Positions 14,797 to 31,762 of a DNA stretch of 64,000 nucleotides are shown here, piece by piece. Each line of letters begins with the position of its first letter. Positions within the stretch are counted from its first letter, which is position 1. The position numbers and the translations under genes are program-made. The notes below the pieces were generated by a model that searched no databases, was not told the DNA's origin, and saw nothing but the letters and a program-made list of their open reading frames with translations. This DNA is from Candidatus Latescibacterota bacterium (GTDB taxonomy: Bacteria > Latescibacterota > UBA2968 > UBA8231): contig OZ241362.1 of NCBI GenBank assembly GCA_965200315.1, positions 352,001 through 416,000 of the forward strand, read 5' to 3'.

Positions 14797-15912
14797 CTAC
14801 AGGCGGTCGCGATATTGTGCTAAGCGGCCGGCGAACATGGAGTCGAGCGCGGCGGCCGAATGCGCCAGCCCGGCGCCAATGCCGCGCTGGGCTACGTGGA
14901 CGAGGAGGCGCATCAGCCCGTTGGCATCGTCGAGATGGATGTACTCCGGGGCCAATTGCGTGCCCGGCCCCGAGTTGTGATAGTTGCCGAGAGGCAGGGC
15001 CACCGCACCCGTGCGATAACCGGCCTGCATTAGCGGGGTAGCTTCGCAAGCACCACTGTCCATCAGCTTGCGTTGATAGCGGAAAGAGGGCTGTTGGGAG
15101 GCCAACTCGTCGGCTAGGGCAGCCAGCCCGCCGCTGATGTCCGGGTCGAACACCCAGAGTCGGTCGCCCACCCGCAAGATCGGCCCCGCGCCCAGCACCG
15201 CCCCAGCCGCCAAGCTAGAGCACTCAATGTTGATGTAGAGGGCGCGGCGCGGCAAGAATTTGGCCTCTAGCGCGGCGAGCATACCGACAAAACCCACTTC
15301 TTCAGCGCGCGTGAGCAAGACGCCGAGGCGGACCGCAGCTTGGAGACGGACCAAAGAATCCAACACGCACAAAGCCACGGCCGCGCCGGCCAAATCGTCG
15401 ATCGCCCGTCCGCTCAAGCGCCGGCCCCGCACCTTAAAGGCCGGCAAATCCCACATCGCAAAGGTCCCCGGCCCTTGGGGGCTGTCGCGTGCTGCGGCCA
15501 CTTCAACTAGGGGATAGCGCGTTTCTTCTGCCTCCACCGTCCGCACGATGGTGCCCGGGATTCCGCGCTGGGTAGCCGGGCGATTCAGGTCGAATATGCG
15601 CACACCTGTCGCCAGCGCTTGCTCTAGGGCGACACCGCCGAGAACCTCGAACAGTGCTCGGCTTGGCCCCTGCGAGCTTCTCCACACTAAGCCGGGGTGG
15701 TCGAGATGAGCGGTTAAGACGATAAATTCGTCGTCTTCCTGCTGGCCGCCGTCGTATAGCAGCAAGCTATTGCCACAGCGGTCGTGGAGCACTTGAATTA
15801 GAGGCCGAGCGGCTGCGAATGAGTGCGCGATGCCGAGAGCAAAATGCTCGTGGAAAGGGGCTGTGGGGGTGCGGATGAGAGGACGGGCGAGTTGGAGAAA
15901 GTCGAATTCCAT
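14797..15912 (-). CDS. Zn-dependent M20/M42-like peptidase/hydrolase
   Basis: APFHE, AHLDHPG, RAIDDLAG, RAEEVGF, GACEAT, GNYHN; metal ligands appear intact. Confidence 0.8.
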   Translation of the reverse strand: MEFDFLQLARPLIRTPTAPFHEHFALGIAHSFAAARPLIQVLHDRCGNSLLLYDGGQQEDDEFIVLTAHLDHPGLVWRSSQGPSRALFEVLGGVALEQALATGVRIFDLNRPATQRGIPGTIVRTVEAEETRYPLVEVAAARDSPQGPGTFAMWDLPAFKVRGRRLSGRAIDDLAGAAVALCVLDSLVRLQAAVRLGVLLTRAEEVGFVGMLAALEAKFLPRRALYINIECSSLAAGAVLGAGPILRVGDRLWVFDPDISGGLAALADELASQQPSFRYQRKLMDSGACEATPLMQAGYRTGAVALPLGNYHNSGPGTQLAPEYIHLDDANGLMRLLVHVAQRGIGAGLAHSAAALDSMFAGRLAQYRDRL

Positions 15913-15957
15913 AACACGGAGGAAAAACCCCCAAAAGACCAGCGCCGTCAACTCCCG

Positions 15958-15986
15958 TTGTCCCAATCAGTTAAGCTACTTATTAT
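15958..15986 (+). promoter_or_regulatory. Putative sigma70 promoter for the 16013-25799 cluster
   Basis: TTGTCC-17 nt-TATTAT in the divergent intergenic gap. Confidence 0.4.
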
Positions 15987-16012: not shown

Positions 16013-18169
16013 TTGCTAAGACGCTTGCCGATTCACTATCTGCACCACCTTGCCGGGCGCGACCAAGCCCTGCTTGCGCCGCTTGGTACCCAGCAGCTAA
16101 CCAGGCGTGCGTTTTGGGTGGGGTCGTTCCTCAGCTTTTTCCTCGCCGTCGGCGCTCCGTACGGCAACATGATCATACGCGGCTCCTACATGGCCTTGGA
16201 CTTCAGTACACCAGGGGCCATTTTTTTATTTCTAGTGCTCATCGGGCTGCTCAATGTGCTGTTCAAAATTGCCTCTAGCCCATCGGGAGCAGCAGTGTGG
16301 GCCTTGGTTTCGAGTGCGCTCTATGGTTTCTATTATGGCTGGGTGGCTCCCCTCGATCCTTTTGCCCCGGGTTTTTTCTTTAGCACTTTCATTCTCGTTT
16401 CGTCCCTGCTCAATATGGTATTGGTCTCTTTCGGGCAAAGTCTGGTCCTCAACCGAGCCGAGTTGATTCTCGTGTACGTCATGCTGTTGATCGTCTCGGC
16501 TCTCTGCACCATGGGCCTGAGCGAACAAATTCTGCCGATGCTCACGGCGATTTTCTACTTTGCCTCGCCGGAAAACAAGTGGCAGGAAATGCTCTTTCCC
16601 CATTTTTCCGCGCGAGAAGTCCTAGTCAACGACGGGAGTGACAACAAGACCTTTTACGAGGGATTGGCATCCGGCGAGGCGATTCCCTACGCAGCGTGGG
16701 TAGAGCCTTTGTGCTGGTGGGCGGTTTTTCTCTTGGCGCTATACGTGACCATGGTATCGGTCGCGGTTATCATCCGTCGGCAGTGGATGGAGCGCGAGCG
16801 ATTGCCCTATCCGATCACGCAGGTGGGGCTGGCGATGGTGCGCGGCGAGGAGCACGGGCTAAAGATCAATACCTTTTTTCGCCAGCCGGCCATGTGGGCC
16901 GGTTTTATGTTACCGATTTTTTTTGGCAGCTTGAGGGCCCTGCACCGCTACGAACCGGCTTTTCCGGTCTTCTCTCTGAGTTCGTCGATGCTCTTAGTGG
17001 GCAAGCAGACCTTGCAACTGAGCGTCAGCTTTGCCATGCTCGGTTTTTCGTACTTCATCAATGCCAATATCGCTGCTGGTATCTGGTTCTTTCACCTCTT
17101 GTCCAAGTTTGAAAAGGAGTTCTTCGCGCTTGCCGGCGTGACATCCGAGCAGAAGGTCACCTTCGGCGTGGCCGATTTCCCCCTGATGGCCTACCAAGGG
17201 GTCGGTGCCTTGCTGGCGATGGTCGGGGTGGGCTTGTGGGTGGGCAGGGAACACTTGGGCAATGTGTGTAAAAAGGCCCTCGGCTTGGCACCAGAGGTGG
17301 AGGATGGGGATGAGATCATGTCCTATCGCTGGTCTTTTTTCGGCGCAGTGGGCGGGGTCTTAGTCATGTCGTGCTGGCTGTGGATCATGGGGACGCCGCA
17401 TTGGGTGGCGTTTGTTTTTGTCGTCTTGGCCCTGTTTATCTTTCTTGGGTTGACGCGGATTGTCGCCGAAGCCGGCTTGGCGGCCGTGCGCGCCCCGATG
17501 ACGGCGCCCGACTTGGTGATCTTGGGGTTGGGAACTGACCTAGTAAGCCGGACTGGGGTGTGGAACTTGTCGTTGGCCTATATGTGGGGCGCGGATGTGC
17601 GGGTGTTCGTCATGGCCACCTGCACCAATGCCCTCAAGCTAATCGAAGAAATGGAACCACGGCTGCGGCGGCTGGTGTTTTGGGCTATTATTCTCGCACT
17701 CTTCATTGGTGCGCTCGGTTCGTTTTGGATGATTTTCCACATGGCCTATCAGCACGGCGGCGTGAACCTCAATGGTTGGTTTTTCAAAGGCGCGCCCGAA
17801 GCCGCGTACAACACCGCGTTACGCAACATGGAACCGGCGGGCGTACACTGGCCGGGAATGGGATTCTTGGCCGGTGGTGGGCTGGTGATGATGGCGATGA
17901 TGTGGGCGCGGCAGCGCCTGCCTTGGTGGCCGGTGCATCCCATCGGCTTTCCCATTGGGGCCAACGGCATGCTCAACGGCGTGTGGTTTAGCGTGTTCTT
18001 GGCTTGGTTTATCAAGAAGATGATCATGCGCTTTGGCGGGGTCGCCTTGTATCGCCGCAGTCAGATGTTTTTTTTGGGGCTGATCTGCGGGCAGGTTTCG
18101 TGTAACGGACTGTGGTTGATCATAGACTACTTCACGGGAAAAGTGGGGAACTCCATTTTTTGGGTATGA
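16013..18169 (+). CDS. DUF6785/DUF6784-like polytopic membrane protein (OPT-related)
   Basis: Many TM segments; TRRAF, ELILVYVM, IIRRQWMERERLPYPI, RIVAEAG, WWPVHPIGF, FFLGLICG. Confidence 0.8.
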   Translation: MLRRLPIHYLHHLAGRDQALLAPLGTQQLTRRAFWVGSFLSFFLAVGAPYGNMIIRGSYMALDFSTPGAIFLFLVLIGLLNVLFKIASSPSGAAVWALVSSALYGFYYGWVAPLDPFAPGFFFSTFILVSSLLNMVLVSFGQSLVLNRAELILVYVMLLIVSALCTMGLSEQILPMLTAIFYFASPENKWQEMLFPHFSAREVLVNDGSDNKTFYEGLASGEAIPYAAWVEPLCWWAVFLLALYVTMVSVAVIIRRQWMERERLPYPITQVGLAMVRGEEHGLKINTFFRQPAMWAGFMLPIFFGSLRALHRYEPAFPVFSLSSSMLLVGKQTLQLSVSFAMLGFSYFINANIAAGIWFFHLLSKFEKEFFALAGVTSEQKVTFGVADFPLMAYQGVGALLAMVGVGLWVGREHLGNVCKKALGLAPEVEDGDEIMSYRWSFFGAVGGVLVMSCWLWIMGTPHWVAFVFVVLALFIFLGLTRIVAEAGLAAVRAPMTAPDLVILGLGTDLVSRTGVWNLSLAYMWGADVRVFVMATCTNALKLIEEMEPRLRRLVFWAIILALFIGALGSFWMIFHMAYQHGGVNLNGWFFKGAPEAAYNTALRNMEPAGVHWPGMGFLAGGGLVMMAMMWARQRLPWWPVHPIGFPIGANGMLNGVWFSVFLAWFIKKMIMRFGGVALYRRSQMFFLGLICGQVSCNGLWLIIDYFTGKVGNSIFWV

Positions 18170-21100
18170 AGCACTCGGCTTACTACATCCTCTGCGTTCT
18201 CGTGCTGATTGCAAACAGCGGTTGGGCACGCGAAGACGGGGTGCGCGAAACCGTCTCTTACCTGTCGTCGCTTGGCTCTAGGATCAGTGGCTATCCTGGG
18301 GCCGCCGCCGCCGCGGATTACGTCGAGCAGCGCCTGCGCGAGATCGGCTTGCCCGAGCTGACTCGCGAATCCTTTGAAGTCACCGTGCCCATCGACCAAG
18401 GAGGTGAGTTATTCCTCACAGAGAGTGGGGAGCGCTACGCACTCTATGGCTTATGGCCCAACTTGGTCCGCACCTCGACCCTGCCCGGATACGAAGGTGA
18501 GATGATCTACGGCGGAGATGGCGAGTGGGAGAATTTCGCGGGCTTTGAGATCGACGGCCGGGTGGTGCTGATGGAGTTCAATAGCTGGAGCCGGTGGTTG
18601 CAGGCCGCCTCGCTGGGGGCGCGCGCCATCGTCTTCATCGAGCCAGAGGAGACCACGCGCAATCAAGCTACAGCTAAGTACTCCACTGCGCCGCTGGACA
18701 TCCCGCGCTTTTGGATTGAAAGAGCCGCCGGATTACAGCTCAAAGAGCGGTTGCTCCAGCACCCGACTTCCGTAGTACTCAAGGGGCGGATGGACTGGCA
18801 GCGCAAAACGGCTTGGAATATCTGGGGCCGGTTCCCTGGCGCCGATCCGACGCTGGCTGACGAGACCATTGTCATCGAAAGCTACTACGACGGCATGTCG
18901 GTGGTTCCCGCCTTGGCTCCGGCGGCCGAAGCGACCAGCGGCATTGCTGCGTTGCTGGCGCTGGCCGAGCATCTAGTGCGTCACCCTCCGCGACGCCCGG
19001 TCGTGCTGGTGGCCACGGGCGCGCATTTCCAAGCTCAGCAGGGGATTGTCCACTTCCTCGAGCGCCACGCTCGCCTCCATCCCTACTATGCCGAGCGGAT
19101 GGAAGAGCCGCTCAAGCCCAAGCTCTTCATCTGCATTGACCTGACGAGTCAGTCCGATGGGCTGGGGATCTGGAACAATACCTTTAGCTACGACCTCAAG
19201 CGGTTCTTCGTGCCTTTTGGACGGCGTTTTACGGCCTATGCCGAGGAGGAGTCCGCTCGGTTGGGTCTGGAGCAGGAGCGGCCGCTGGCCAATGGGATCA
19301 GCCCAATTCGCGGCATGGACTGGTCAACTTTTGTGCCGGGCGGGGTCTCGGTCAGTGGGGAGCAGGCTCTGACTGCTGGGATTATCTCGCTGTCGTTTGT
19401 GACTGTCAACGACGGCCGCTATCTCGTCGATACCCCGTTCGATACGCCCGAGCGAATGAATATCGACAATCTGTCCCGCCAAAGCCGCCTGCTCAACGCC
19501 ATGCTGACGCGGGCCATAAACGACGAGGACCTGTTTGCCGACCTCGAAGACTTTGGCCCGGTGCTCAAGGACAAATTGCGTTCCCTGCGGGTCAAGGTCC
19601 GTTCGTTTCCGCGCCGCAGCCAAGCACCAGACCGCCCTATTGCCGACGCCCTTGTAGTGGTTGATCCTTGGTACAAGTCGCACAAGGGACTTCGCATGGC
19701 GCGGTACCACCTCACAGATGACCAAGGCGTCGCCGATATCCATGGCTTGTGGACCGGGGCCTATCCAGTGGCGGCCTACCAAGTTAATCCGGCGACCGGA
19801 CAGATCGTCTATGCGCCCGATCTATCTAAAAGGGGGCAGCAGTTCAGCGGCGCGGTCGTGAATGGGTGGATGATCGACAGCAAAGTTCGCTGGAATACTA
19901 ACGAAAAGACCATCGTCGTCTTTCCCACCATTTCGCGGCCCTTCTACAGCATGATTGACCCGCGCTATCTCCGGTCGTTCAAGGGGATCAAAATCGTCGA
20001 TGGCAACGGGGTGGAACCTCGGCAGTTCGGGCTAGCGCGGGGGGCGGGCGAGGGCGAAGCCGTCGGTGTGGTGTTTGGAGCGCAGGACGCCGACGAGGAC
20101 GACGGCATCAAGATGCTCATCGACAACCGCATGCTCTTACTCAACAGCGAAGGCTCCGAAAACGAGACGCAGGCGCGGGGACGAGGCTACGCGCTCAGAG
20201 AGGAATCGCTGGTCCGCACCGGGATGCTGGCCGTTGAGGACATGTGGCAGCTCAACGAGGCGCGGCTGCGCACCTTGCGCGAGCACGCCATTGAAAATCA
20301 ACGCTTGGCCCGGTTGCACCAGCGCGGCAAAAGCCTGATCGAAAAAGCGCGACAGGCCGAAGAGGTCAAGGATTGGGAGCGCTATGTCGAGCATGTCCGG
20401 GCCGCGCTGGGGGTGACATCTCGTGCGTATCCAGAAGCACTACAGACGCTCAACGACGTCATCAGCGGCATGGTGTTCTTTCTCGCCTTAGTCATCCCGA
20501 CGGCCTTTTTGGGGGAGCGGTTGCTGTTTGCGGCCGCCGACATCCGCTGGCAGCTAGCGGGGTTTGGGGGGTTGTTGCTTTTGATCTGGATCGCCATCTC
20601 TCAGGTGCATCCAGCCTTTGCCATTGCCCATCCGCTGGTGATCTTGCTGGCCTTTGCCATCATGGCGATGGCGGCGTTTGTCATGGCCATGATTAGCAGC
20701 CGCTTTAACCGCTATATGAAGACCTATCAGGCGCGGGAAGCCCACGTCCACGAGACCGATATCAGCCGCGCCAGTGCCAGCTACGCGGCCTTTATGCTCG
20801 GCATTTCCAATATGCGGCGGCGCAAGCTGCGCACCGGGCTGACCTTGCTGACCTTGGTCTTGCTCACCTTTACGGTGCTCTCCTTCACCTCGTTCAATAC
20901 CCAAATTCGCTACATGGCCTTTGCGATGGACCACGAGGGCCCCTACGAAGGAGTGCTGATCCGCGACCGTAATTGGAACTTGCTAAACCGCCCGACGCTC
21001 GACTACGCCCGCTCCCACTTTGCCGCCGAGGGGGTGGTCGTGCCGCGGAACTGGTATGTTGCCTTTGACGACGAGCAGAAGAAATACATCGAGGTCTTTG

Positions 21101-22569
21101 GCGATACCTCGGTGGTGCGGGCGACCGGAATGCTGGGGCTGGTGCCGGAGGAAGTGCGCGTCACCGGCATCGATAAGGCACTGGTGGGCGGCAGCTTCTT
21201 CGCGCACGAGGACGAAGCAACCTGCCTGATGGCCGAGGGCATGGCCGCGGCGCTGGGCATAGGGCCGGCGGAGCTGGGCACGGCGACGGTGCGGGTATTC
21301 GGCCGGGACTTGGTGGTGCGGGGCGTGTTCGACCCCGACCTTTTTGAGGCGGTCCGCGACCTCGACGACGAGCCCCTGACGCCGGCGGATTTCCAGATGT
21401 CGAGCACCCAAGCACTAGGGCCGGTGGCCCAAGACAAGATGAGCATCGCCGTAGATGAATCCGCGCTCGATATTCGTCCCTTCATCCACCTAGAATCCGA
21501 CAATGTGCTGGTCTTGCCATACGGGACATTGCGGGAGGCGGGGGGCATGTTGCGCTCAGTGGCGGTGCTGCTGGAAGATGGGGAGCGCGGACAGGAGATG
21601 GTCGAGGATTTTCTCCTGCGTCTGGCCATTACGCTCTTTGCCGGCCTGAAGGATCCGGGCGAAGCCGCCATTAAGGTGTTTTCCTATACCTCGATTGGGT
21701 CGCCTGATGTCGAGGGCTTGGGGGCCTTGGTGATACCCATGTTTATCGCGGCGCTGATTGTGCTCAATGCGATGATGGGGGCCGTCTATGAGCGCTTTCG
21801 CGAGATCGGCATTTATTCGTCGGTGGGATTGGCACCGTTACACATTGCCTTGCTGTTTGTGGCCGAGGCCTGTGTCTATGCCATCATTGGCGTTACTTTG
21901 GGCTATATTCTCGGCCAGAGTGTGGGCAAAGCACTCATCGCGCTGGACCTGTTGCAGGGAATAAGCCTCAATTATTCGTCGATGGCGGCGATTGTCTCGT
22001 CCCTGATCGTGATGGCCGTGGTCTTGCTTTCGACTATATATCCGGCTAGGGTAGCAGCCCGCACGGCCGTGCCCGATACGGTCCGGCGCTGGACGCCGCC
22101 GGACCCGGATGGGGACCGCTGGGAAATGGAGTTTCCCTTTATGGTCAGCGAGGGGGAAGTGCGGGGCCTGTGCGGTTTCTTAGCCGGTTACTTCAGTGCC
22201 TATAGCGAGGAGTCCATCGGCGATTTCTACGCCGAGAAGGTCCAGTTGGTCCAAGAAGATGGCGAGCGCGGGCCGGAGTACGCGGTGCAGCTCCTGCTCT
22301 GGCTGGCGCCGTTCGACATGGGGGTGAGCCAGTTCATGCAGCTCGAATTTTTGCCCACCTCGGTCAAATCCGTCTATACGGTGGAGATTTACATTCAGCG
22401 GATCAGCGGTCAGGACACCTTTTGGCAGCGGGTCAACCACCGCTTTATCAATGGGTTGCGGAAAGAGTTCCTGCTCTGGCACACCCTCGCCACAGAGTCC
22501 AAGGCCCACCATCGCGGGGTCGCCGAGCAGATGTTGGCTGAGGCCGCAGAAGTTGAGCGAGTGGAATGA
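18166..22569 (+). CDS. Large FtsX/MacB-type permease fused to an M28-fold + PA ectodomain
   Basis: Signal peptide; SRISGYPG, PA-like segment, M28-like core; SNMRRRKLRTGLTL and VYERFREIGIYSSVGLAP FtsX motifs; ATGA overlap with the upstream gene. Confidence 0.85.
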   Translation: MKHSAYYILCVLVLIANSGWAREDGVRETVSYLSSLGSRISGYPGAAAAADYVEQRLREIGLPELTRESFEVTVPIDQGGELFLTESGERYALYGLWPNLVRTSTLPGYEGEMIYGGDGEWENFAGFEIDGRVVLMEFNSWSRWLQAASLGARAIVFIEPEETTRNQATAKYSTAPLDIPRFWIERAAGLQLKERLLQHPTSVVLKGRMDWQRKTAWNIWGRFPGADPTLADETIVIESYYDGMSVVPALAPAAEATSGIAALLALAEHLVRHPPRRPVVLVATGAHFQAQQGIVHFLERHARLHPYYAERMEEPLKPKLFICIDLTSQSDGLGIWNNTFSYDLKRFFVPFGRRFTAYAEEESARLGLEQERPLANGISPIRGMDWSTFVPGGVSVSGEQALTAGIISLSFVTVNDGRYLVDTPFDTPERMNIDNLSRQSRLLNAMLTRAINDEDLFADLEDFGPVLKDKLRSLRVKVRSFPRRSQAPDRPIADALVVVDPWYKSHKGLRMARYHLTDDQGVADIHGLWTGAYPVAAYQVNPATGQIVYAPDLSKRGQQFSGAVVNGWMIDSKVRWNTNEKTIVVFPTISRPFYSMIDPRYLRSFKGIKIVDGNGVEPRQFGLARGAGEGEAVGVVFGAQDADEDDGIKMLIDNRMLLLNSEGSENETQARGRGYALREESLVRTGMLAVEDMWQLNEARLRTLREHAIENQRLARLHQRGKSLIEKARQAEEVKDWERYVEHVRAALGVTSRAYPEALQTLNDVISGMVFFLALVIPTAFLGERLLFAAADIRWQLAGFGGLLLLIWIAISQVHPAFAIAHPLVILLAFAIMAMAAFVMAMISSRFNRYMKTYQAREAHVHETDISRASASYAAFMLGISNMRRRKLRTGLTLLTLVLLTFTVLSFTSFNTQIRYMAFAMDHEGPYEGVLIRDRNWNLLNRPTLDYARSHFAAEGVVVPRNWYVAFDDEQKKYIEVFGDTSVVRATGMLGLVPEEVRVTGIDKALVGGSFFAHEDEATCLMAEGMAAALGIGPAELGTATVRVFGRDLVVRGVFDPDLFEAVRDLDDEPLTPADFQMSSTQALGPVAQDKMSIAVDESALDIRPFIHLESDNVLVLPYGTLREAGGMLRSVAVLLEDGERGQEMVEDFLLRLAITLFAGLKDPGEAAIKVFSYTSIGSPDVEGLGALVIPMFIAALIVLNAMMGAVYERFREIGIYSSVGLAPLHIALLFVAEACVYAIIGVTLGYILGQSVGKALIALDLLQGISLNYSSMAAIVSSLIVMAVVLLSTIYPARVAARTAVPDTVRRWTPPDPDGDRWEMEFPFMVSEGEVRGLCGFLAGYFSAYSEESIGDFYAEKVQLVQEDGERGPEYAVQLLLWLAPFDMGVSQFMQLEFLPTSVKSVYTVEIYIQRISGQDTFWQRVNHRFINGLRKEFLLWHTLATESKAHHRGVAEQMLAEAAEVERVE

Positions 22570-25500
22570 TGGAAGCGTTTTTTCAAAGACTGTCTGCGTC
22601 TTTTCAGCAGCTATTTGATCGCAAACAAAAAAAGGAGCGCCAGTGGGCGGAGGTTGAAGAGTACCGCGCCTTACTCGAAGCGCCCGAGCCCAACCGCTTT
22701 GATGAAGGTTTTACGATCCGCACCATTATCGGCGTGTTCTTTATCTCGCTGATTATGACTCCTGGCGAGATGTTCCTCGGGCTGTACACGGGTGGCGGCG
22801 TTGGCGCGGCAGCGCAATGGGTGACGGTGATCCTCTTTTTAGAAGTCGCCAAACGTTCGTTTACCTCGCTCAAGCGCCAAGAGATCTACCTGCTAGTGTA
22901 CGTGGCCTCGGCCTTGGTCTCCCGCGAGGAAGGCGCGTTTCTCGACTTACTCTGGCGTCAGTACTTCGTGACCTCGGCCGAAGCCGAGCAATTCGGTATC
23001 TCGCACCGCTTGCCGTCGTGGTGGGTACCCGGGCCCGATTCGGAGGCCATTGCCGAGCGCACCTTTATTCACCGCGACTGGTTGATTCCGATCCTGCTGT
23101 TGGTGGTCGGGACGATCATGGGCCGCATCGCTTGGTTTACGTCCGGCTACATGCTCTTCCGGCTGACTTCCGACCGCGAGCAATTGCCCTTTCCCACCGC
23201 ACCCATGTCGGCGTTGAGCTCTATGGCGCTGGCCGAGGATTCGGGCGCCGAGCGGGAGACGTGGAAGTGGCCGGTGTTTAGCATTGGCGCGGTCATCGGT
23301 GCGTCATTCGGGGCCATCTATGTAGGGGTGCCGGTGGTCACCCATCTCTGGGGATCCAAAGTGGAGATTCTGCCGATTCCCTTCTGGGACCTGACGCCCT
23401 ATTTCGGCAATATACTCCCTGCCACGCCGCTGGGGGTCGTCGTGCACTTGGGGCCGATATTCGCCGGGATGCTCATGCCCTTCTGGCTGGTGGTTGGCTC
23501 CTTTTCCGGGGTGATGCTGCACACGGCTGTTAGCCCCTTTCTCTATGAATTAGGCTATCTCCCGCGCTGGGAAGTCGGTATGGACACCATCCGCACCGGG
23601 ATCGTCACTAGTATCGACTTTTGGCAAGCCTTTTCTATTGGCATTACCATCGCCGTCACCATCGTAAGCTTCTACCAACTCTTTAGCACCGGCCGTGAGA
23701 AGCGGGCCGAACTGCGCGAGAAACTGCAACTTGAGAAGGCTGATCAGTCCACGGTGTGTCAGCACTCGGACTGCCATCGCCCAGCCGAGGTGAGGGGATA
23801 CTGCTTAAAACACCTAGGCCGCGGCGATTTCAATATGTGGGTCTGCGCTTCGCTGTTTTGCGTAGCGGCGATCTATCCGATCGTCTTGGCCAAGGTCTTG
23901 TTTCCCACTTTGGTCAGCACTGGCCTGTTGGTGCTTTTCGTGCTCATCGCCTTTGTTTATGCGCCGATCATGTCCTTTGTCAGCGCTCGGCTCGACGGTT
24001 TGATTGGCGAGAACGTTTCGATTCCCCATGTCGAAAACGCCATCCGCTTTATGACCGGCTTTCGCGGGGTCGAAATCTGGTTCGTGCCCTTTCCTACCCG
24101 CAACTTCGGCGGGAATGCCGAGAGATTTAGGATCGTCGAGTTAGTTGGGATGAAGTTTACCAGCCTACTCAAGGCCGAGCTCTTTATGTTGCCCATCGTC
24201 TTAGGGGTTAGTCTGATGTACTGGACCTTCCTCTGGCGCTTGGGGCCTATTCCCTCGGAAAGCTACCCATACGCGCAGGTCATGTGGCCGCGGCAGGCCT
24301 TTGAACAAGCACTCATCTACTCCGCCACGATGTACAGCAAAATGTGGCGCGCCGGAGGGGAGTTGGAAGGGGATATTGTGCCCAATGGCCAAGTCGTGTG
24401 GAGCCCGAGCAATTTGGAGGACGGTCGTTGGTGGTACTGGCGGGTGAGTACCACTAGGGATTTAGAGGTGCCCGATCCGGTAAAGCGCGACTATGAACCT
24501 TGGTCGCAGACAGGCTACTTCTACACGGACTTCAGCGGCGGGGACGCACCACCGCCGCCGGAGGCCGCCCTAAGGATCGACGCCGAGGCGGGTACTCCGT
24601 CGGATGGCCCCCAGCTACTTTGGCCACCCAATGGCGCGGCCATTGACACGCCGAACCCCAACTTCCGAGCTGCGATCAATTTGGCTCCGGGCGATTCGGT
24701 TGATTTCTACTTTGAAATAGATCGTCTGCCCAGCTTTGATGGCGAGGCTTTGCAACGATCCTCGGACATGCCCTTGCTCTTTGAGGTTCTGTGGCAGGAC
24801 ATGCGCTTTACCGGCAACCGCAAGGACGACGACGGCGATCTCAATATCGCGGCTCTCGTCGAGAGTGTGGATCCGGAGGGGTTGGGAGGCCAGCTTGGAC
24901 TGGCCGACGGCGACCGCCTCCGTGCGATAAACGGCGTCGAACTTCGCGTCCCGCAATGGGATACTGAGCGGATTGATCGGTATTTTACCCAGGGAGCGGA
25001 CTCGGTATTTGCCGCTTGGGAACGGGATGAGAAAACCATGCGTCGCGCTGTGGTGCGTCGATCTGGGGAAGCTCTGGGGCTTGAGTTTGCGGCGGACACG
25101 TCATTCGTCGAGAGTTGGACCGAATACGACGCGGTGCGCGTCACCACCGTAGCCGAAGCAGGGCTAGGCCACCGCTTGGGCTTGCAAGCCGGCGACCATC
25201 TTATGACGATCAACGGCCAAAGCATTGAGCAGGATACGTGGCGTAGCGAGAAGGTAAGGACCGCCTTTGCTGCGGTTGTGGAGGAGACCGCGACTACGGT
25301 GCTAGTCGAGTGGGAGCGGGATGGAGACCGGCTTCAAGGTTTGGTGGCCGATGCGTCGTCTCTCCCGCTAGGCCTGACCTATCGGGCCGGGGCCATCGAG
25401 GGCATCGACGAAGAGCTGGTCAACAACCGCGACGACGATGGCGACGGCCTGATTGACGAGGATACGGACCATCCCCTCGGCGGTAGAAAGTGGCCCATCA

Positions 25501-25799
25501 TCCTCGGCGCAGCGGGATTCGGCTTGACCGCATATTTCACGCTGGCCTTTATGGGAATGCCGATTTTTCTCATCTGGGGATACGTCCAGAGCGTCAACGG
25601 CATTCCGCATGGTCTCATTCCGCAAATCATCGGTGCCTTGATCGCCCGACACTACTTCTGGAAGCGATACGGCATGCAGGAATGGCGGCGCTACGCCATG
25701 GTTCTGAGCGTGGGCTTCGGGGTTGGCATGTCGCTGATCGGCATGTTTAGTGCCGCTTTGGAGATGATCAATAAGGCCGTTTCTTCTCTAGCCTATTGA
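22566..25799 (+). CDS. OPT-like 'peptide transporter' membrane protein with large inserted soluble domains
   Basis: FDEGFTIRT, AAQWVTVILF, SDREQLPFP, PIPSESYPYAQVMW; two PDZ-like GLxxGD units; DDDGDGLIDED repeat; ATGA overlap. Confidence 0.75.
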   Translation: MMEAFFQRLSASFQQLFDRKQKKERQWAEVEEYRALLEAPEPNRFDEGFTIRTIIGVFFISLIMTPGEMFLGLYTGGGVGAAAQWVTVILFLEVAKRSFTSLKRQEIYLLVYVASALVSREEGAFLDLLWRQYFVTSAEAEQFGISHRLPSWWVPGPDSEAIAERTFIHRDWLIPILLLVVGTIMGRIAWFTSGYMLFRLTSDREQLPFPTAPMSALSSMALAEDSGAERETWKWPVFSIGAVIGASFGAIYVGVPVVTHLWGSKVEILPIPFWDLTPYFGNILPATPLGVVVHLGPIFAGMLMPFWLVVGSFSGVMLHTAVSPFLYELGYLPRWEVGMDTIRTGIVTSIDFWQAFSIGITIAVTIVSFYQLFSTGREKRAELREKLQLEKADQSTVCQHSDCHRPAEVRGYCLKHLGRGDFNMWVCASLFCVAAIYPIVLAKVLFPTLVSTGLLVLFVLIAFVYAPIMSFVSARLDGLIGENVSIPHVENAIRFMTGFRGVEIWFVPFPTRNFGGNAERFRIVELVGMKFTSLLKAELFMLPIVLGVSLMYWTFLWRLGPIPSESYPYAQVMWPRQAFEQALIYSATMYSKMWRAGGELEGDIVPNGQVVWSPSNLEDGRWWYWRVSTTRDLEVPDPVKRDYEPWSQTGYFYTDFSGGDAPPPPEAALRIDAEAGTPSDGPQLLWPPNGAAIDTPNPNFRAAINLAPGDSVDFYFEIDRLPSFDGEALQRSSDMPLLFEVLWQDMRFTGNRKDDDGDLNIAALVESVDPEGLGGQLGLADGDRLRAINGVELRVPQWDTERIDRYFTQGADSVFAAWERDEKTMRRAVVRRSGEALGLEFAADTSFVESWTEYDAVRVTTVAEAGLGHRLGLQAGDHLMTINGQSIEQDTWRSEKVRTAFAAVVEETATTVLVEWERDGDRLQGLVADASSLPLGLTYRAGAIEGIDEELVNNRDDDGDGLIDEDTDHPLGGRKWPIILGAAGFGLTAYFTLAFMGMPIFLIWGYVQSVNGIPHGLIPQIIGALIARHYFWKRYGMQEWRRYAMVLSVGFGVGMSLIGMFSAALEMINKAVSSLAY

Positions 25800-25841: not shown

Positions 25842-26162
25842 ATGGACTTACTTACGCGCATATTCCGCGTCGTGCGGGCGCACACTGCTTCTAGCAAGCC
25901 GAGCGACGCCTACGAACACTGGCAGCCCCCGCCGCCGCCTGAGCCTGCCGAAGACCAAGTACTCGCCGGATACTACGCCAATCTGGAACTCCCATACGGG
26001 GCGAATCTGGAAGAGGTGAAGGCCGCGTGGAAGCGGCTGATGAAACAGTACCACCCCGACCGCCACGCACAGGATCCGGCCAAGCGCGAGGTGGCCAACG
26101 CGCTGTGCGCCCAGTTGACGCACGCCTATAAAGAGTTGGAAAAGTCTCTGACGACCCACTAA
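25842..26162 (+). CDS. J-domain (DnaJ-like) protein
   Basis: YYANLELPYGA..EEVKAAWKRLMKQYHPD (HPD motif). Confidence 0.9.
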   Translation: MDLLTRIFRVVRAHTASSKPSDAYEHWQPPPPPEPAEDQVLAGYYANLELPYGANLEEVKAAWKRLMKQYHPDRHAQDPAKREVANALCAQLTHAYKELEKSLTTH

Positions 26163-26180
26163 ACTAGCTGGAGGAAGCTT

Positions 26181-26576
26181 ATGGCTGATTTTGCCACCGT
26201 AAAGGAGTACGTTCTCGAATTGGGCTTTGCCATTGCCGAGGAGATTCCCGAAGAAGAAATCATCATTGTCAACGACGAGGAGCGAGGGGTACAAAACCTA
26301 GTCATTGATTGCGAGGAGGATACAGTCTTGGTGATTGAGCAGCTCATCATCGAGGTCGCGGCTGGAGCTACCGAGGCGTATAAGCGGATTTTGCAGATGA
26401 ACCGCGACTTGGTCTTTGGTGCCTTCGTCCTCAACGAAGAGGGCGATTCGCTGCTCTATCGCAACACGCTGGCGCTGGAGAATTTGGACTTAAACGAACT
26501 GGAGAGCACCATCAACTCCCTCGGTCTCGGCTTGGCTGAGCACGGGGAGGAATTACTAGGATTTGCCGCCAAATAG
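26181..26576 (+). CDS. YbjN/CesT-like chaperone-fold protein
   Basis: Acidic 131 aa; LQMNRDLVFGAFVL, YRNTLALENLDLNE; GGAGG RBS; directly upstream of PspA. Confidence 0.8.
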   Translation: MADFATVKEYVLELGFAIAEEIPEEEIIIVNDEERGVQNLVIDCEEDTVLVIEQLIIEVAAGATEAYKRILQMNRDLVFGAFVLNEEGDSLLYRNTLALENLDLNELESTINSLGLGLAEHGEELLGFAAK

Positions 26577-26587
26577 GAGGATAGGAT

Positions 26588-27298
26588 ATGGCAGGTTTAT
26601 TTCAACGCTTGTTTAAAACCGGTCAGGCCGAGGCCCACGCCATGGTGGATAAGCTCGAAGACCCGATCAAGATGAGCGAGCAAGCGATCCGCGACTTAAA
26701 AAAGGACTTGCAGGAAAGTCTCAAGGCTCTGGCCGAGGTCAAGGCGATTTCCATCAGGCTCAGCCGCGAGTCCGAAGACCACCGCCGGCGCGCCGAAGAC
26801 TACGAGCGCAAGGCCATGCTGCTGTTGCAAAAGGCCGAATCTGGTCAGATAGAGGAGGCTGAAGCCGACCGCTTGGCGCGCGAATCCTTGACCCGCGTCG
26901 AAGAGGCCCAGAGTCGGCACTCAGAAGCCTCCCAACAGGCCCAAGCCCAACAGGCGATGGCCGACAAGCTACAGAGCAATGTCAACGATCTGAAGTCGAA
27001 AATCGCCTCGTACGAAAACGATCTAGTAACTCTCAAGGCGCGCACCAAGACCGCCAACGCTACCCGCAAAATCAACCAGCACTTGGCCAACATCGACTCC
27101 AAGGGGACCACGGCCCTGCTCGAACGGATGAAGGAAAAGACCGAAGAGCAGGAAGCCCTCGCCGAAGCCTATGGCGATATGGGAGACGCGGCGACGAGCG
27201 TTGACGACGAGATCAACAAGGCCCTCGCCGACAGCAAGGGAGCCAAAGTCGACGATTCCCTGGCCCAACTCAAGGCCAGAATGAAGACAGCAAAATAA
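26588..27298 (+). CDS. PspA/IM30 (ESCRT-III-like) family protein
   Basis: MAGLFQRL amphipathic start, LEDP, long coiled coil, ERMKEK, LAQLKARM C-terminus. Confidence 0.93.
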   Translation: MAGLFQRLFKTGQAEAHAMVDKLEDPIKMSEQAIRDLKKDLQESLKALAEVKAISIRLSRESEDHRRRAEDYERKAMLLLQKAESGQIEEAEADRLARESLTRVEEAQSRHSEASQQAQAQQAMADKLQSNVNDLKSKIASYENDLVTLKARTKTANATRKINQHLANIDSKGTTALLERMKEKTEEQEALAEAYGDMGDAATSVDDEINKALADSKGAKVDDSLAQLKARMKTAK

Positions 27299-27321
27299 GG
27301 GTTGCCGCCCGTGCCCATGGG

Positions 27322-28971
27322 ATGAAATCCCTTAGCCGCAGGCAATTTTTCGGCGCATTCGCCGCCGCTGGTAGCTGGGTCGCTTGGAGTGGTTGCTCGT
27401 CTGACCAGCCGCCGCGGCCGGTCCCTGGGCGGATCGTCAACGAGGGGCCTCCGAGTGGACACCTGCTGCGCGATGTGCATTCTTGGGCAGACTTTGCCGC
27501 GGCTGAGCCCGCGTGCGATGTCGCCATTGTCGGCGGTGGGATATCCGGCTTGGCGGCGGCGTGGAAGTTGCGTCGGTCGGGGGTGGAGCGAATCCTCCTC
27601 CTCGACCTCGACGACCAGCTAGGGGGCACCAGTCGCAGTGGGCACTGGGGCGACCAAGTATTCCCTTGGGGCGCTCACTACATCAACATCCCTCCCGCCG
27701 AAGCCGACTGCATCCACGAAATACTGCAAGATCTAGGCGTCATCGACGGCTACGACGCGGCGAATAAGCCGCTGGCCGCCGCTGGGGCGATGCTGCGCTG
27801 GCCGCACGAGCGGCTCTTCTATCGGGGTCGCTGGGTCGCTGGGCTGGACCCGTTTGTCGACGCATCGGGCCGGGAGCGCGAAGCGTTGTTGCGCTTTGAA
27901 GACGAGATGCTGCGCTGGGCCTTGCATCGCGGCCGGGACGGGCGTCGGGCCTTTGCCATGCCTTTGCGCTACAGCACGAGCGATGTCAGGGTGCGGCGTT
28001 TGGACCAGATCAGTATGGCCCAGTACCTCCGCGAGGAAGGCTGGCACGACGACCGGCTGCGCTGGTTGGTCGATTACGCCTGCCGCGACGACTACGGCAG
28101 CACGGCCGCCCAAGTCTCGGCTTGGGCCGGGATTCACTACTATGCCTGTCGGTTTTATGACTACCGATTACACGAATCGTATCCAGCGCACACGCTGACG
28201 TGGCCCGAGGGCAATGGGTACCTAGTTCAGCAACTCGCTAATAGGCTGGGGGAAAACGAGATAAAGCGACAAGCTCTAGTGGCTCGTCTAGCCGAAGAGC
28301 GGGCACAGGTGCGGTTGGGATACGTCGACTTGGCCACCGGGGAAAAGCGGCAACTGACCGCCCGAGCGGTGGTGTACGCCGGCAAGCTCCACACGGCTCC
28401 TTATGCGATTGCAGACTTGCCGGATGCACAAGCTAAAGCCATGGCGGCCATTGAGTATAGCCCTTGGCTGGTAGCGGCGATTTTCCTCAAAGAACCGCTC
28501 GCTGCCCATCAGACCACTTGGGACAATGTCTTGTACGATAGCCCGTCGCTGGGCTACGTGGTCGCCGACCATCAGCAGGGCGGTGGCCGCGTGTTGATGT
28601 ACTATTGGCCCTTTGTCGATAAACTTGCGGACGCCCGGCAGACCTTGCTCGCGCAGGACCATTCATTCTGGACCAAGCAGATCATGGTCGATTTGCGCCG
28701 AGTTCACCCTGAGCTAGACGACCTCATAGAGCGTGTCGATCTATATCGCTGGGGGCACGGGATGATGCGGCCTAGTCCTCGGTCGCTGTGGGGGCCGACG
28801 GCTGCTTGGCGACAGCAGCCCATGGAGCGGATATTTTTTGCCTCGTGCGATGCCACGGGGCTGCCCCTGTGCGAAGAAGCGATCTTTGCCGGTATGCTGG
28901 CGGCGGAGCAGGCCATGGACTGTCTCGGCGTGGCGTATTCCTCCTCGCTGGGAGGGCTTGCGGATGCCTAG
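27322..28971 (+). CDS. Tat-exported FAD-dependent amine oxidase-like oxidoreductase
   Basis: SRRQFF twin-arginine plus WSGC lipobox-like; IVGGGISGL, PWGAHY, YACRDDYG, RWGHGM. Confidence 0.85.
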   Translation: MKSLSRRQFFGAFAAAGSWVAWSGCSSDQPPRPVPGRIVNEGPPSGHLLRDVHSWADFAAAEPACDVAIVGGGISGLAAAWKLRRSGVERILLLDLDDQLGGTSRSGHWGDQVFPWGAHYINIPPAEADCIHEILQDLGVIDGYDAANKPLAAAGAMLRWPHERLFYRGRWVAGLDPFVDASGREREALLRFEDEMLRWALHRGRDGRRAFAMPLRYSTSDVRVRRLDQISMAQYLREEGWHDDRLRWLVDYACRDDYGSTAAQVSAWAGIHYYACRFYDYRLHESYPAHTLTWPEGNGYLVQQLANRLGENEIKRQALVARLAEERAQVRLGYVDLATGEKRQLTARAVVYAGKLHTAPYAIADLPDAQAKAMAAIEYSPWLVAAIFLKEPLAAHQTTWDNVLYDSPSLGYVVADHQQGGGRVLMYYWPFVDKLADARQTLLAQDHSFWTKQIMVDLRRVHPELDDLIERVDLYRWGHGMMRPSPRSLWGPTAAWRQQPMERIFFASCDATGLPLCEEAIFAGMLAAEQAMDCLGVAYSSSLGGLADA

Positions 28972-30484
28972 GCTGGGTGCGCTGTTTTTGCTGGTGGCCA
29001 TTTTCTCGGCCGCAGTCTGTGCCATCGTCTATCAGCTCCTCATCGGCAGTGTGTCTTCCTACTTCCTCGGCAATAGCGTCGAGCAGTTTTCCCTGACGAT
29101 CGGCTTTTTCCTCGCCGCGATGGGGCTTGGCTCTTGGCTTTCGCGCTTTGTCGCCGACGACTTGCTGTTGACGCGACTGGCCCAGCTAGAGATTTGGCTG
29201 GGTTTTTTGGGTGGGCTTTCGGTTGGCGTACTCTACGTGCTCTATGGATACACCGACCACTTTAGGGCTGGCATGTTGGCATTGAGCACGGCGATTGGAG
29301 CATTGATCGGCCTAGAAGTGCCGCTGATCACCCGACTTCTGCGCGGGCACGGTACGCTGCGCGCGGCGCTGTCTAATGTTTTATCCCTCGATTATTTAGG
29401 GGCTTTGTTGGCTTCGTTGCTCTTCCCGTACATCCTGTTGCCCTTCCTCGGCAGCCTGCACACGGCGTTGGTCGCCGGCTTGATCAACGCCGGCCTTGGC
29501 CTCGGCGTGGTGCTTGCGTTTAAGGAGGTGTTGCGAGCGCAGCGCGCCTTCCACTGGCTAGGGGCGCAAGCAGTTGCTGTTATTGCCGTGCTAGGGGCGT
29601 TGGCGTGGCAGGGAGAGGGGTTGCGGGCGCGGTGGGAAAGCGACCTCTACGCAGATCGCATCGTCCACAGCGAGCAATCGACCTACCAGCAAATCGTCCT
29701 GACCCGGCGCGACGAACACCTGCGGCTCTATCTCAATAGCCACTTGCAATTCGCCTCCATTGACGAGCACCGCTATCACGAGGCCCTAGTCCATCCGGCT
29801 ATGGCACTGGCTCCCTCCCGCGAAAGGGTGCTCATCATAGGGGGAGGGGATGGCCTAACGGCGCGGGAAGTGCTCAAATACGAGGAGGTCCAGCACGTCG
29901 ATTTAGTCGATCTCGACCCGGCAGTGACCCGGTTGGCCCAGCGCAACATCTACCTGACGCGGCTCAACGACAACGCCTTGAATCGCCGTCAAGTCCGCGT
30001 GGTCAACGAAGATGGCTTTGTCTTTTTGCAGCGCGAGCACGTGCCGTATGGCGCGATACTAATCGACTTGCCTGACCCTCGCGAGGAGAGCTTGGCCAAG
30101 CTTTATTCGGTCGAGGCCTATAGACTGTGCCGCAAGCTGCTCAGCCCACAAGGCGTCTTGGCGACTCAAGCTTCTAGCCCGTACCACGTCCGCGAGGTGT
30201 ACTGGAGCATTGCTGCCGCCTTGGAGGAAGCTGGCTTTACCGTCCATTCCTATCACTTGCACGTGCCCTCTTTTGGCGAGTGGGGGTTCCACTTGGCGGG
30301 ATCCGCCGGGCTGGATCCGACGGCAGTCGCCTTTGCCGTTCCCACGCGCTATATCGACCGCCAAGTATGGGGGGGCCTCTCGGTGTTCGACGGCGATATG
30401 GCCCGCTTGCCCGTGCAGGCCAACCGACTTGATAGGCCGGTGTTGGCGCGTTATTATCGACAGGGTTGGGACACTCAGTTTTGA
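28964..30484 (+). CDS. speE: Membrane-anchored polyamine aminopropyltransferase (spermidine synthase-like)
   Basis: N-terminal TM bundle, DEHRYHEALVHP, IIGGGDG, DLDP, DLPDP, VPSFGEWGF. Confidence 0.88.
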   Translation: MPRLGALFLLVAIFSAAVCAIVYQLLIGSVSSYFLGNSVEQFSLTIGFFLAAMGLGSWLSRFVADDLLLTRLAQLEIWLGFLGGLSVGVLYVLYGYTDHFRAGMLALSTAIGALIGLEVPLITRLLRGHGTLRAALSNVLSLDYLGALLASLLFPYILLPFLGSLHTALVAGLINAGLGLGVVLAFKEVLRAQRAFHWLGAQAVAVIAVLGALAWQGEGLRARWESDLYADRIVHSEQSTYQQIVLTRRDEHLRLYLNSHLQFASIDEHRYHEALVHPAMALAPSRERVLIIGGGDGLTAREVLKYEEVQHVDLVDLDPAVTRLAQRNIYLTRLNDNALNRRQVRVVNEDGFVFLQREHVPYGAILIDLPDPREESLAKLYSVEAYRLCRKLLSPQGVLATQASSPYHVREVYWSIAAALEEAGFTVHSYHLHVPSFGEWGFHLAGSAGLDPTAVAFAVPTRYIDRQVWGGLSVFDGDMARLPVQANRLDRPVLARYYRQGWDTQF

Positions 30485-30497
30485 AAGGACATGCCAG

Positions 30498-31046
30498 ATG
30501 GGTTTAAGGAAATGGTTCAGTGGTCGCCAAGACGAGGAAGAACCGACCTATCAGGAGTATTCACTCAGCACCATGAAGGTGGGCTTTCTAGTCGATTACG
30601 ACCTCAAAACGTGGCAAGTTACAGGCCGTGGAAGCTATGACTACGAAGGCTATACTACAGAGGAATGGGAATTGCAGGCCGATGGTCAGGTGTGCTTCCT
30701 CGAGTGCGCTATAGAAGACGGCAAAGCCTATTGGACCCTGACGCGGGCGATTGGCATTGACGAAATCGAAGGCGATATTGCGGCGGTGATCATCGCCGAC
30801 GGCGACCCGCCTGAAACTGTACGGTTTGAGGGTGATGAATACGTGGGGAGCACGAGCGATGCGGGCCTGTACCGCAAAGACGGCACCGAGGCGGAGCGCG
30901 AATTTGTCAACTGGTCGTTTGAAGGAGAAGAAGGCAAGGTGCTTTTTATCAGCCAGTGGGGCGAGCGCGACTTTGCCGCGTACGCAGGCTTGGAGGTAGA
31001 AGAATACCAATTCACCGACATCTTGCCGGTGGAGGAGGGCACTTGA
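30498..31046 (+). CDS. DUF4178 domain protein
   Basis: YDLKTWQV, EWEL, PPETVRFEG, ISQWGE..F; acidic; typical context. Confidence 0.8.
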   Translation: MGLRKWFSGRQDEEEPTYQEYSLSTMKVGFLVDYDLKTWQVTGRGSYDYEGYTTEEWELQADGQVCFLECAIEDGKAYWTLTRAIGIDEIEGDIAAVIIADGDPPETVRFEGDEYVGSTSDAGLYRKDGTEAEREFVNWSFEGEEGKVLFISQWGERDFAAYAGLEVEEYQFTDILPVEEGT

Positions 31047-31047
31047 A

Positions 31048-31752
31048 ATGGCTTGGCGCGTTGCGGCCTTGGCGTTGTGGGGCCTGATTGCCTGTGGGTC
31101 AAAAGACCCGGTGCGCGAATTGGTGCGCGACTTAGATCGCTATCCCGAGTACTCCCTGATCGTCGATGATACCCGCATCGAAGATCCCTCATTTTTTCCC
31201 GACTATTTCCTTCGCTTTCAGGTGTTGACCGCTGCGGGACAGCGCGTCGCCGGCCGCGATACCATCGTCTATCAGGAGCGCCGCACTGATTGGATGGAAG
31301 TCCGCGAAGAGACCTTCTACCGCTACAACAACTACGTCGGCATGGTCGTGGCCTCCAAGTCGCTGGACGGTCGCCGCACCGGTACCAATCAAGCGCACCC
31401 GCCCGGCTACCAATACGTCGGCAATCCCCAGTACGGGTTTTGGGGAGGCGGTGGATTTTGGCAATTTTACGGCCAGTACGCGCTGATGCGCGACTTAATG
31501 GGAGGATGGGGTGTTGGCCGCGGCGATTGGGAGGACTATCGCCGCAATCGGGAAAGGGGACGCCCGTACTACGGGCCGGTAAAAGGGGGGCGGCCCACCT
31601 TTGGGTCGCGCGGTTCGCAAACCCAAAAGACGCGACCGCAATTCTACCAACGCCAGCAAAGCCGCCGCCAAGCCTTTAGCGGCCAAGTCAAAAACCGCAT
31701 GGGCCGCACCACCTCTGGGTGGGGAGGCGGGTCCTCGCGCTTTGGAAAATAG
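31048..31752 (+). CDS. Lipoprotein with Gly/Arg-rich tail (PspA-module partner)
   Basis: Lipobox LIAC; PPGYQYVGNPQYG, FWQFYGQYA; low-complexity C-terminus ending SRFGK. Confidence 0.7.
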   Translation: MAWRVAALALWGLIACGSKDPVRELVRDLDRYPEYSLIVDDTRIEDPSFFPDYFLRFQVLTAAGQRVAGRDTIVYQERRTDWMEVREETFYRYNNYVGMVVASKSLDGRRTGTNQAHPPGYQYVGNPQYGFWGGGGFWQFYGQYALMRDLMGGWGVGRGDWEDYRRNRERGRPYYGPVKGGRPTFGSRGSQTQKTRPQFYQRQQSRRQAFSGQVKNRMGRTTSGWGGGSSRFGK

Positions 31753-31762
31753 GGGGAATGCA

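Follow-up and report, generated by a model that had tools for sequence, protein, structure and literature searches.

A putative pseudo-peptidase/type VII permease hybrid encoded with predicted OPT-fold carriers, and a candidate motor elsewhere in the genome

We analysed a 64,000-nucleotide window (C1:352001-416000) of the genome of a Candidatus Latescibacterota bacterium, a single contig of 5.36 Mb whose B homologues (see below) are labelled Latescibacterota, Handelsmanbacteria or Gemmatimonadota by source records. Between positions 16013 and 25799 the window holds three large membrane-protein genes, here called A, B and C, which we discuss as the possible membrane body of a transport system. 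The genes follow one another on the forward strand and are joined by ATGA overlaps at 18166-18169 (A/B) and 22566-22569 (B/C). A preliminary description of this DNA had pointed to three large membrane genes linked in this way, and both the open reading frames and the overlaps check out. The genes and their features are as follows; the two motifs were located by translation.

16013-18169, forward: A, 718 amino acids (aa) if read from TTG; the gene caller prefers ATG 16025 (714 aa), which is probably the translation start
16790-16813, forward: ERERLPYP motif of A, in register with the motif of C
18166-22569, forward: B, 1467 aa, putative pseudo-peptidase/type VII ATP-binding cassette (ABC) permease
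18229-19515, forward: PA and M28-like ectodomain of B (residues ~22-450), from profile comparison with the PDB; degenerate metal site
19570-19929, forward: transthyretin-like/CnaB-type beta sandwich of B (469-588), from structure comparison
20458-20694, forward: three extra transmembrane (TM) helices of B (765-843), past a helical stalk, from hydropathy, model and conserved columns
20755-22086, forward: type VII module of B (864-1307), predicted as TM1, MacB-type periplasmic domain, TM2, coupling helix and TM3-4
22111-22488, forward: cytoplasmic helix-grip-like C-terminal domain of B (1316-1441), Z 8.0-8.7
22566-25799, forward: C, 1077 aa, predicted OPT/YSL-fold carrier
23172-23195, forward: DREQLPFP motif of C; D203, E205, L207 and P210 invariant in 36 sequences
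24327-24764, forward: Ig-like insert of C (588-733), Z ~5.7 to Ig/FnIII, in some paralogues only
24846-25385, forward: PDZ insert of C (761-940), PF17820 E 2e-12, lineage-restricted and of low model confidence

Three overlapping membrane genes

A profile of 82 B proteins matches a PA-containing M28 aminopeptidase (2ek8, E 3e-24), MacB (5e-16) and nicalin (2e-9), as well as YtrF, and the ectodomains of nicastrin and the transferrin receptor at 1e-3 and 5e-9, respectively. To read the metal site we used the canonical M28 metal-ligand motif, with the register of the B head taken from the HMMER alignment. Among the 82 proteins, the first metal His is Tyr in 63 and His in 4, the position of the bridging Asp is Glu in 60 and Asp in 11, and the last metal His is replaced by Ser, Ala or Gly (His in 3); Asp325 is kept in 76. 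The Glu that follows the catalytic position is variable (Phe in 43). The head therefore lacks the set of five metal ligands and catalytic Glu that marks an M28 aminopeptidase: with three of the five ligands gone and a His in place of the catalytic Glu in 80 of the 82, it is, judging from sequence, a dead peptidase with a conserved pocket. The signal peptide ahead of it was judged by eye only.

The structure model of B spans residues 455-1467 (predicted local distance difference test, pLDDT, 88). Its beta sandwich aligns with 3e8v (Z 10.6, root-mean-square deviation (rmsd) 2.7, 81 residues aligned) and with carboxypeptidase D domain 1qmu (Z 9.5, rmsd 1.8, 79 aligned). The following module carries PF02687 (MacB/FtsX) at residues 1188-1300 and is matched by Foldseek to MacB 5gko (E 5e-10); structure comparison gives Z 15.7 to YtrF, Z 13.7 to FtsX 8tzj (rmsd 2.9, 165 aligned) and Z 12.9 to the MacB periplasmic domain 3ftj (rmsd 3.5, 177 aligned). 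The coupling-helix residues E1209, R1210, E1213, I1214 and G1221 are found in 80, 81, 76, 81 and 82 of 82 proteins, and the model predicts a complete type VII module. The C-terminal domain aligns over 98-116 residues, at rmsd 2.9-3.7, with Bet v1-like 1vjh, Aha1, StART-like and KA1 domains; since the Z scores are middling it is assigned to a fold class only, and the ESM Atlas returned no usable match for it. Taken together, these results support B as a pseudo-peptidase/type VII hybrid. Among the 50% representatives, three B homologues (P0122, P0124 and P0126; 2769-3053 aa) have more than 1200 extra N-terminal residues.

C was modelled with AlphaFold2 from a 36-row alignment (pLDDT 71). The model aligns with barley YS1 (7wsr, Z 19.1, rmsd 4.5, 539 residues aligned; the next unrelated chain has Z 5.7), and Foldseek retrieves 7wst, also barley YS1, at E 8e-8. 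C is thus predicted to have a YS1-type OPT/YSL fold. By sequence, C of the window scores 23.2 bits against PF03169, under the 25.8 cut-off, and has no family match other than its PDZ insert; 2 of the 36 aligned members match PF03169 weakly, and many C homologues outside this genome carry it and are named OPT/YSL or peptide transporter. The Ig-like and PDZ inserts, the latter in 5 of 36 aligned proteins, sit near the C-terminus, and compact paralogues lack them. Five acidic residues (E78, D186, E188, D258 and E447) are invariant in 63 of 63 sequences. No relatives of C were found in the plasmids or viral contigs searched.

A is a polytopic membrane protein of the DUF6785 and DUF6784 families (PF20581, E 6e-107; PF20580, E 2e-28). 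In hhalign, a 46-row profile of A matches a 63-row profile of C at 96% probability (E 4e-9, 464 columns) with both motifs in register; neither profile has a match in the PDB. An OPT/YSL fold is predicted for A through its homology to C. An Atlas OPT cluster in which 19% of members carry DUF6785 (score 0.87) is a lead only. What the preliminary description had read from these letters holds up well: the distant paralogy suggested by the shared E(R/Q)LP(Y/F)P motif is borne out by the profile alignment, the OPT-like identity of C by the YS1 comparisons, and the PA/M28 ectodomain, extra TM bundle, MacB/FtsX module and soluble C-terminal domain that it gave B were all recovered.

A conserved gene set with its probable motor outside the locus

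In a sample of 80 B loci from other genomes, A or C lies within 10 kb of B in 79, the exception being a 5-kb contig; the co-occurrence of these genes is therefore not chance, and the grouping that the preliminary description treated as one unit does recur elsewhere. B is fused to A in 10 of the 80 loci and in 8 of 120 among the B matches listed, and some outside B loci carry A without C. This genome holds seven B copies, one of them fused to an A, five C copies and ~40 A genes, ~5 of them fragments. A adjoins six of the seven B copies and lies ~9 kb from the seventh, across an insertion. In a tree of 58 rows (FastTree), B-linked A genes are sister to solitary A genes at four or more places; the two are interleaved, so the solitary genes are not a separate family.

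Several of these loci are worth describing individually. The natural B-A fusion of this genome encodes 2090 aa (L001:8125-14394, reverse strand). At the seventh copy, B and A are separated by ~9 kb of inserted genes (L004/L005, C1:1901000-1909600), and at L008:9260-9900 a small pair, toxin-antitoxin-like by eye, lies between the two. A locus of order C-A-B (L002:15485-20000, with C1:1357000-1363000 upstream) follows ExbB/ExbD-like (by eye), PPIC and O-family genes, the last two described below.

Type VII permeases are partners of an ATPase, and the preliminary description had stressed a three-component machine with no ABC ATPase in the locus. The second point stands for the locus itself: we found no ABC ATPase among the gene calls over window positions 8000-34000, where the FtsH is an AAA protease, and none in eight regions around the other six B copies. 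It does not stand for the system, which has at least six conserved parts, including a small permease, D, and a LolD-like ATPase, E. D is a 214-aa FtsX-type permease of four helices without a periplasmic domain. The order B-C-(Q)-D-E occurs in 5 of the 80 outside B loci, all from non-Latescibacterota records, with Q, a PqqD-like protein, in between in four. A second sample of 80 metagenomic loci, anchored on C, gives the full order B-C-X-Q-D-E in 19 and D-E upstream of B-C in 2 more; overall B is present in 59, X in 27, D in 23, Q in 22, E in 21 and A in 15. Because many of these contigs stop early and several loci nearly duplicate one another, the sample amounts to fewer than 80 independent cases. 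The same six-gene order is found in genomes G098 and G101.

In our genome the D-E pair is operonic with no B copy; it is adjacent, in one copy, at C1:4512258-4513777, 4.1 Mb from the window. Its E (g3556) is 73% identical to operonic E, the next LolD-like protein being 55-57% identical, and it falls in the operonic-E clade with support of 94/92 (IQ-TREE, 50 rows; the 12 loci of this genus centred on D were excluded, as were three in four of the 30 loci from the phylum of genome G031). It retains Walker A/B, LSGGQ and the H-loop. The best NCBIfam match of E is LolD (E 7e-68, below its cut-off), which outscores the ECF ATPase models. E adjoins D in 42 of 42 D loci examined. X (331 aa) and Q, also single-copy, lie behind a C paralogue at 4.03 Mb (L007:15955-17320, forward strand). 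Q matches PF05402 (PqqD) at 40-44 bits, against a cut-off of 23.4, in all four proteins scanned (E 3e-11), and the lasso-peptide recognition element (RRE) TbiB1 at E 1e-7, and has a conserved basic/hydrophobic stretch ahead of the PqqD domain. X has no match above noise in Pfam and none in the PDB; its halves align weakly with each other (58%, 36 columns), and a PsbP-like fold is a lead only.

Distribution follows the same lines. Among 31 genomes of the class, D occurs exactly once in all 31 and Q once in 30, with B in 3-7 copies and DUF6785 matches from 18 to at least 35. Of the 65 genomes of the G031 phylum (0.9-2.7 Mb), B was detected in 59 and D in 60; the two genes mostly sit on separate contigs, and E adjoins D at each of the 30 loci retrieved. 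The 13 incomplete genomes of the G032 phylum include five with D; four of these five also have B, which was not found in the remaining eight. An archaeal, Planctomycetota and Armatimonadota range is indicated by Atlas taxa and one source name only, without assigned loci. The copy numbers suggest one motor common to several B bodies and dozens of carriers, and D-E very probably serve the B of the window.

A further LolD-like ATPase, g865 (L266:778-1479, reverse strand; C1:1047277-1047978), has no neighbouring permease. It is sister to the E clade (support 99/90). As a query it returns two matches at E 1e-75 in 29 of 31 class genomes (in G023 one match lies within a few kb of a B gene) and matches of 91-99% identity in 17 of 18 genus relatives. 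A heterodimer of E-type and g865-type subunits would possibly fit the asymmetry of B and D. Two oddities of D were seen elsewhere: an internal TAG stop in G057 (L149:1168-1803) and two D-E copies in G099 (C6 and C10).

Surroundings of the A genes and of the locus

Clues to cargo were sought among the neighbours of the A genes. Genes within 10 genes of an A were counted and compared with a rotation control; the seeds were picked from A neighbours and excluded from the counts. Exported proteins of the O family lay near an A of this genome in 27 of 40 cases (null 6.7), FlgD-tail-type proteins in 58 of 148 (null 25.1) and PPIC proteins in 13 of 29 (null 4.9), each at p ~0.001. These make up an exported-protein cassette, repeated ~30 times, of FlgD-tail-type proteins, an ~880-aa O-family protein and a PPIC protein, which resembles a hitherto undescribed outer-membrane uptake or surface system particular to the lineage. 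Examples lie on C1 of this genome (G000) at L008:14665-19362 and L096:3055-9563. The families number 152 FlgD-Ig-tail-type proteins (by profile), 42 O proteins and 32 two-PPIC proteins of ~540 aa. The O family has a conserved hydrophobic, strand-like C-terminal motif and matches no Pfam family or PDB chain. A placement of A among Gfo/PhyH catabolic genes was also considered and failed the rotation control.

Solitary A genes of other phyla neighbour alpha-L-fucosidase, CBM4_9, DUF1559, sugar-binding protein, LacI/GntR regulator and sulfatase genes (19 hand-picked proteins from 12 loci, without a background). In G033 the A genes (L271, L274) are flanked by DUF1559 prepilin-type genes, on 2 of 4 A genes, and by CBM4_9, which hints that DUF1559 proteins are part of the same uptake loci. 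The cassette setting would suit either exported clients or an uptake module of the outer membrane, and the fucosidase/CBM setting agrees with glycan uptake. Among recurrent neighbours of at least 90 aa we found no precursor or modifying-enzyme families of ribosomally synthesised and post-translationally modified peptides; short open reading frames were not screened.

Around the trio itself, an M42-like peptidase gene (window 14797-15966, reverse strand) diverges from A and is retained in the two close relatives read. Downstream, a row of forward-strand genes (25842-32698) encodes DnaJ-domain, CesT/YbjN-like, PspA/IM30 and flavin amine oxidoreductase proteins, followed by a membrane spermidine-synthase-like protein, DUF4178, an unknown protein and DUF350; its make-up suggests a PspA-linked cluster for envelope stress or polyamines. 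In the gene lists of the same two relatives, the DnaJ, CesT-like, PspA and spermidine-synthase-like genes also follow C. They do not recur as neighbours in distant loci and are therefore not counted as parts of the system. A sigma-70-like site at 15958-15986 was weak, 1 of 8 found against 4.3 expected in the promoter and terminator scan, and was not used. Four metatranscriptomes of one study cover the locus, but as contigs of even depth that run through divergent genes and intergenic DNA as well, and for that reason do not show transcription.

Interpretation and comparison with known systems

Partner proteins are what type VII ABC systems work on mechanically, passing no cargo themselves (PMC12646458), and characterised OPT proteins are uptake porters (PMC3061005); the gene set supplies these two halves. 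Our leading, still tentative, reading is that the locus encodes the membrane body of an ATP-driven importer with a shared motor and exchangeable OPT-fold carriers. B would pair with the small permease D, and B-D would dock a dimer of the LolD-like ATPase E, possibly with a second E-type ATPase; a single D-E pair would be common to the seven B paralogues. ATP-driven mechanotransmission in B-D would move the periplasmic head of B, whose dead peptidase domain would bind or gate cargo, and the same motion would reset the elevator of docked OPT-fold carriers, supplying the path that type VII folds lack. C would be the constant carrier and the A-family proteins exchangeable, cargo-specific ones, mostly encoded alone beside nutrient-capture genes; Q and X would act as single-copy cytoplasmic adaptors. 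A physical contact between B and C is likely. When C was predicted in complex with two membrane pieces of the B from its own locus (L085, 50-row alignments), the score was 0.27 against a mark of 0.32, without controls, which weighs neither way. The uptake direction, and ATP rather than protons as the drive of the carriers, are what we would expect from this arrangement, and the cargo may be glycan fragments or peptides. Of the preliminary description, the paralogy of the two OPT-like proteins, the hybrid nature of B and the joint travel of the genes are supported, and B-A fusions exist; the three-component, ATPase-free character is not supported. That the whole is a new primary active importer class, in which dozens of interchangeable OPT-fold elevator carriers, elsewhere known as proton symporters, draw on one type VII mechanotransmission motor for the entire genome, is a bolder claim and a doubtful one.

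Several observations weigh against the importer. According to the available passages of PMC12646458, characterised type VII systems move no cargo across the membrane. Most full operons lack A, which only 15 of the 80 C loci carry, so that it may work alone on protons, as OPT carriers do. About eight C loci have 7-10 kb of upstream DNA without a B, which is missing from 21 of 80 overall, so the B-C linkage is not strict. Near A, neither Gfo/Idh/MocA (10 of 98; null 16.8) nor PhyH genes (24 of 156; null 27.0) are enriched, a g1530 receptor-like family is found once in 10, and ExbB/D-like genes are not enriched (labels by eye). The exported-protein cassettes near which A is enriched fit protein export as well as uptake, and the PqqD/RRE domain of Q points to peptide leaders, not sugars. 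The related genomes surveyed are, moreover, non-independent samples.

Export of proteins or peptides, or envelope biogenesis, is one alternative, which we consider unlikely, if worth keeping in mind. Here Q would read a leader in the cytoplasm, C or A would translocate the chain, the B head would receive it, and the type VII motor would release it from the membrane as LolCDE does for lipoproteins, with client-specific A paralogues. The PqqD/RRE-like nature of Q, the match of the head to nicalin (profile positions 151-547, E 2e-9), the exported-protein, FlgD-tail and PPIC genes within 10 genes of A and the DUF1559 prepilin-type genes at half of the four A genes of G033 all agree with it, and a near-universal single copy in genomes of 0.9-2.7 Mb would suit a housekeeping role. 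However, the characterised OPT/YSL proteins in the passages seen of PMC3061005 are uptake porters, true aminopeptidases outscore nicalin for the head (E 3e-24 versus 2e-9), no precursor-peptide or modifying-enzyme family recurs among the neighbours of clustered loci, Q is absent from some operons (L081), and the cassettes could equally be outer-membrane uptake modules.

It is also unlikely, to our minds, that the carriers are proton-driven and that the only role of B-D-E is to detect a ligand in the periplasm and turn them on or off, as in the action of FtsEX on EnvC or of BceAB on the kinase BceS. Type VII systems do act on partners, some of them in the membrane, without a pore (PMC12646458, in the passages available), the invariant acidic residues of C (E78, D186, E188, D258 and E447) could couple protons, and with one D-E pair for ~45 carrier genes, regulation is easier to envisage. 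Against such a gate, single-copy D, E and Q kept beside expanding B, C and A is the pattern of an obligatory energiser, the B-A fusion in 10 of 80 loci implies fixed coupling, and no kinase or regulator recurs in the operon.

Improbable by comparison with these is a split into two separate things, a B-C-X-Q-D-E machine on one side and, on the other, A carriers that run independently on protons and often come to lie next to it. Some 33 of the 40 A genes here lie at a distance from every B, an A accompanies only 15 of 80 C loci, and G032 (1.3 Mb, incomplete) has B, C, D and E with no DUF6785 match; yet B-A fusion is repeated, A stands beside 6 of 7 B copies, B loci with A and without C exist, and DUF6785 is found in 0 of 14 control genomes. 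An ATPase-free hybrid, in which the type VII fold is rewired to work without ATP, would explain why no ATPase lies near any of the seven B copies and why an extra cytoplasmic domain of B sits where an ATPase might otherwise be, but it is largely refuted, and very improbable, given the operonic D-E of other lineages, the orthologous D-E here, D in 31 of 31 class genomes and the conserved coupling helix of B.

If the importer is correct, it would work behind the lineage-specific outer-membrane cassette. The near-universality of the gene set in a phylum of 1-3 Mb genomes makes it probably central to the feeding or envelope building of abundant uncultured organisms, and DUF6785/DUF6784, among the most expanded unknown membrane families of Latescibacterota-like bacteria, would be given a fold and a function open to testing. 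The system is directly testable because its six-gene operons are compact. Our literature search, made partly by title and excluding subscription papers and supplements, found no description of the system or of DUF6785; the preliminary description had likewise known of no functional characterisation.

How, then, does this gene set compare with known systems? The head of B, like nicalin, nicastrin and the transferrin receptor, has an M28 fold without a metal site on a stalk above the membrane; it differs from them in that active M28 aminopeptidases score higher for B and in that B is fused to an ABC module. Among OPT/YSL carriers (TC 2.A.67; barley YS1, 7wsr/7wst), C is predicted to share the YS1 fold over 539 of 600 residues, and A is homologous to C; however, C is only 12-14% identical to YS1 and is encoded with an ABC motor. 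The OPT family review (PMC3061005) mentions peptidase fusions and, in the passages seen, no ABC link.

With type VII ABC systems (MacAB-TolC, LolCDE, FtsEX, YtrEF, YbbAP-TesA, BceAB-BceS), whose function is set by the partner according to the passages seen of PMC12646458, B has in common the four-helix module, the MacB-type periplasmic domain and the coupling helix. E is an ATPase of the LolD/MacB class with intact motifs, which we infer to pair with this B, and a heterodimer of unlike permeases, as in LolCE, is likely. The hallmarks that can be checked in B, D and E, namely coupling-helix, module and ATPase motifs, are present. Unlike those systems, B is 1467 aa long with a pseudo-peptidase head, three extra helices and a helix-grip tail, D has no periplasmic domain, the partners are predicted OPT-fold carriers and a PqqD-like protein, and there is one motor pair for 3-7 large permeases. 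The prevailing view is that type VII systems work mechanically and carry no cargo across the membrane and that OPT/YSL proteins are proton-driven; wiring the two together in one machine would give both families an additional coupling mode.

In group II ECF transporters, one shared ATPase module serves many scattered substrate-specific membrane proteins. The likeness to our system lies in genomic logic only, that is, a shared motor and scattered carriers. In place of EcfT there is a type VII module, in place of small S components there are OPT-fold carriers of ~650 aa, and there is a large periplasmic head; the features of EcfT/EcfA and S components were not found, the folds being those of type VII and OPT proteins. 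If our reading is true, this would be an independent invention of ECF-like modularity and a main inner-membrane uptake route of several uncultured phyla.

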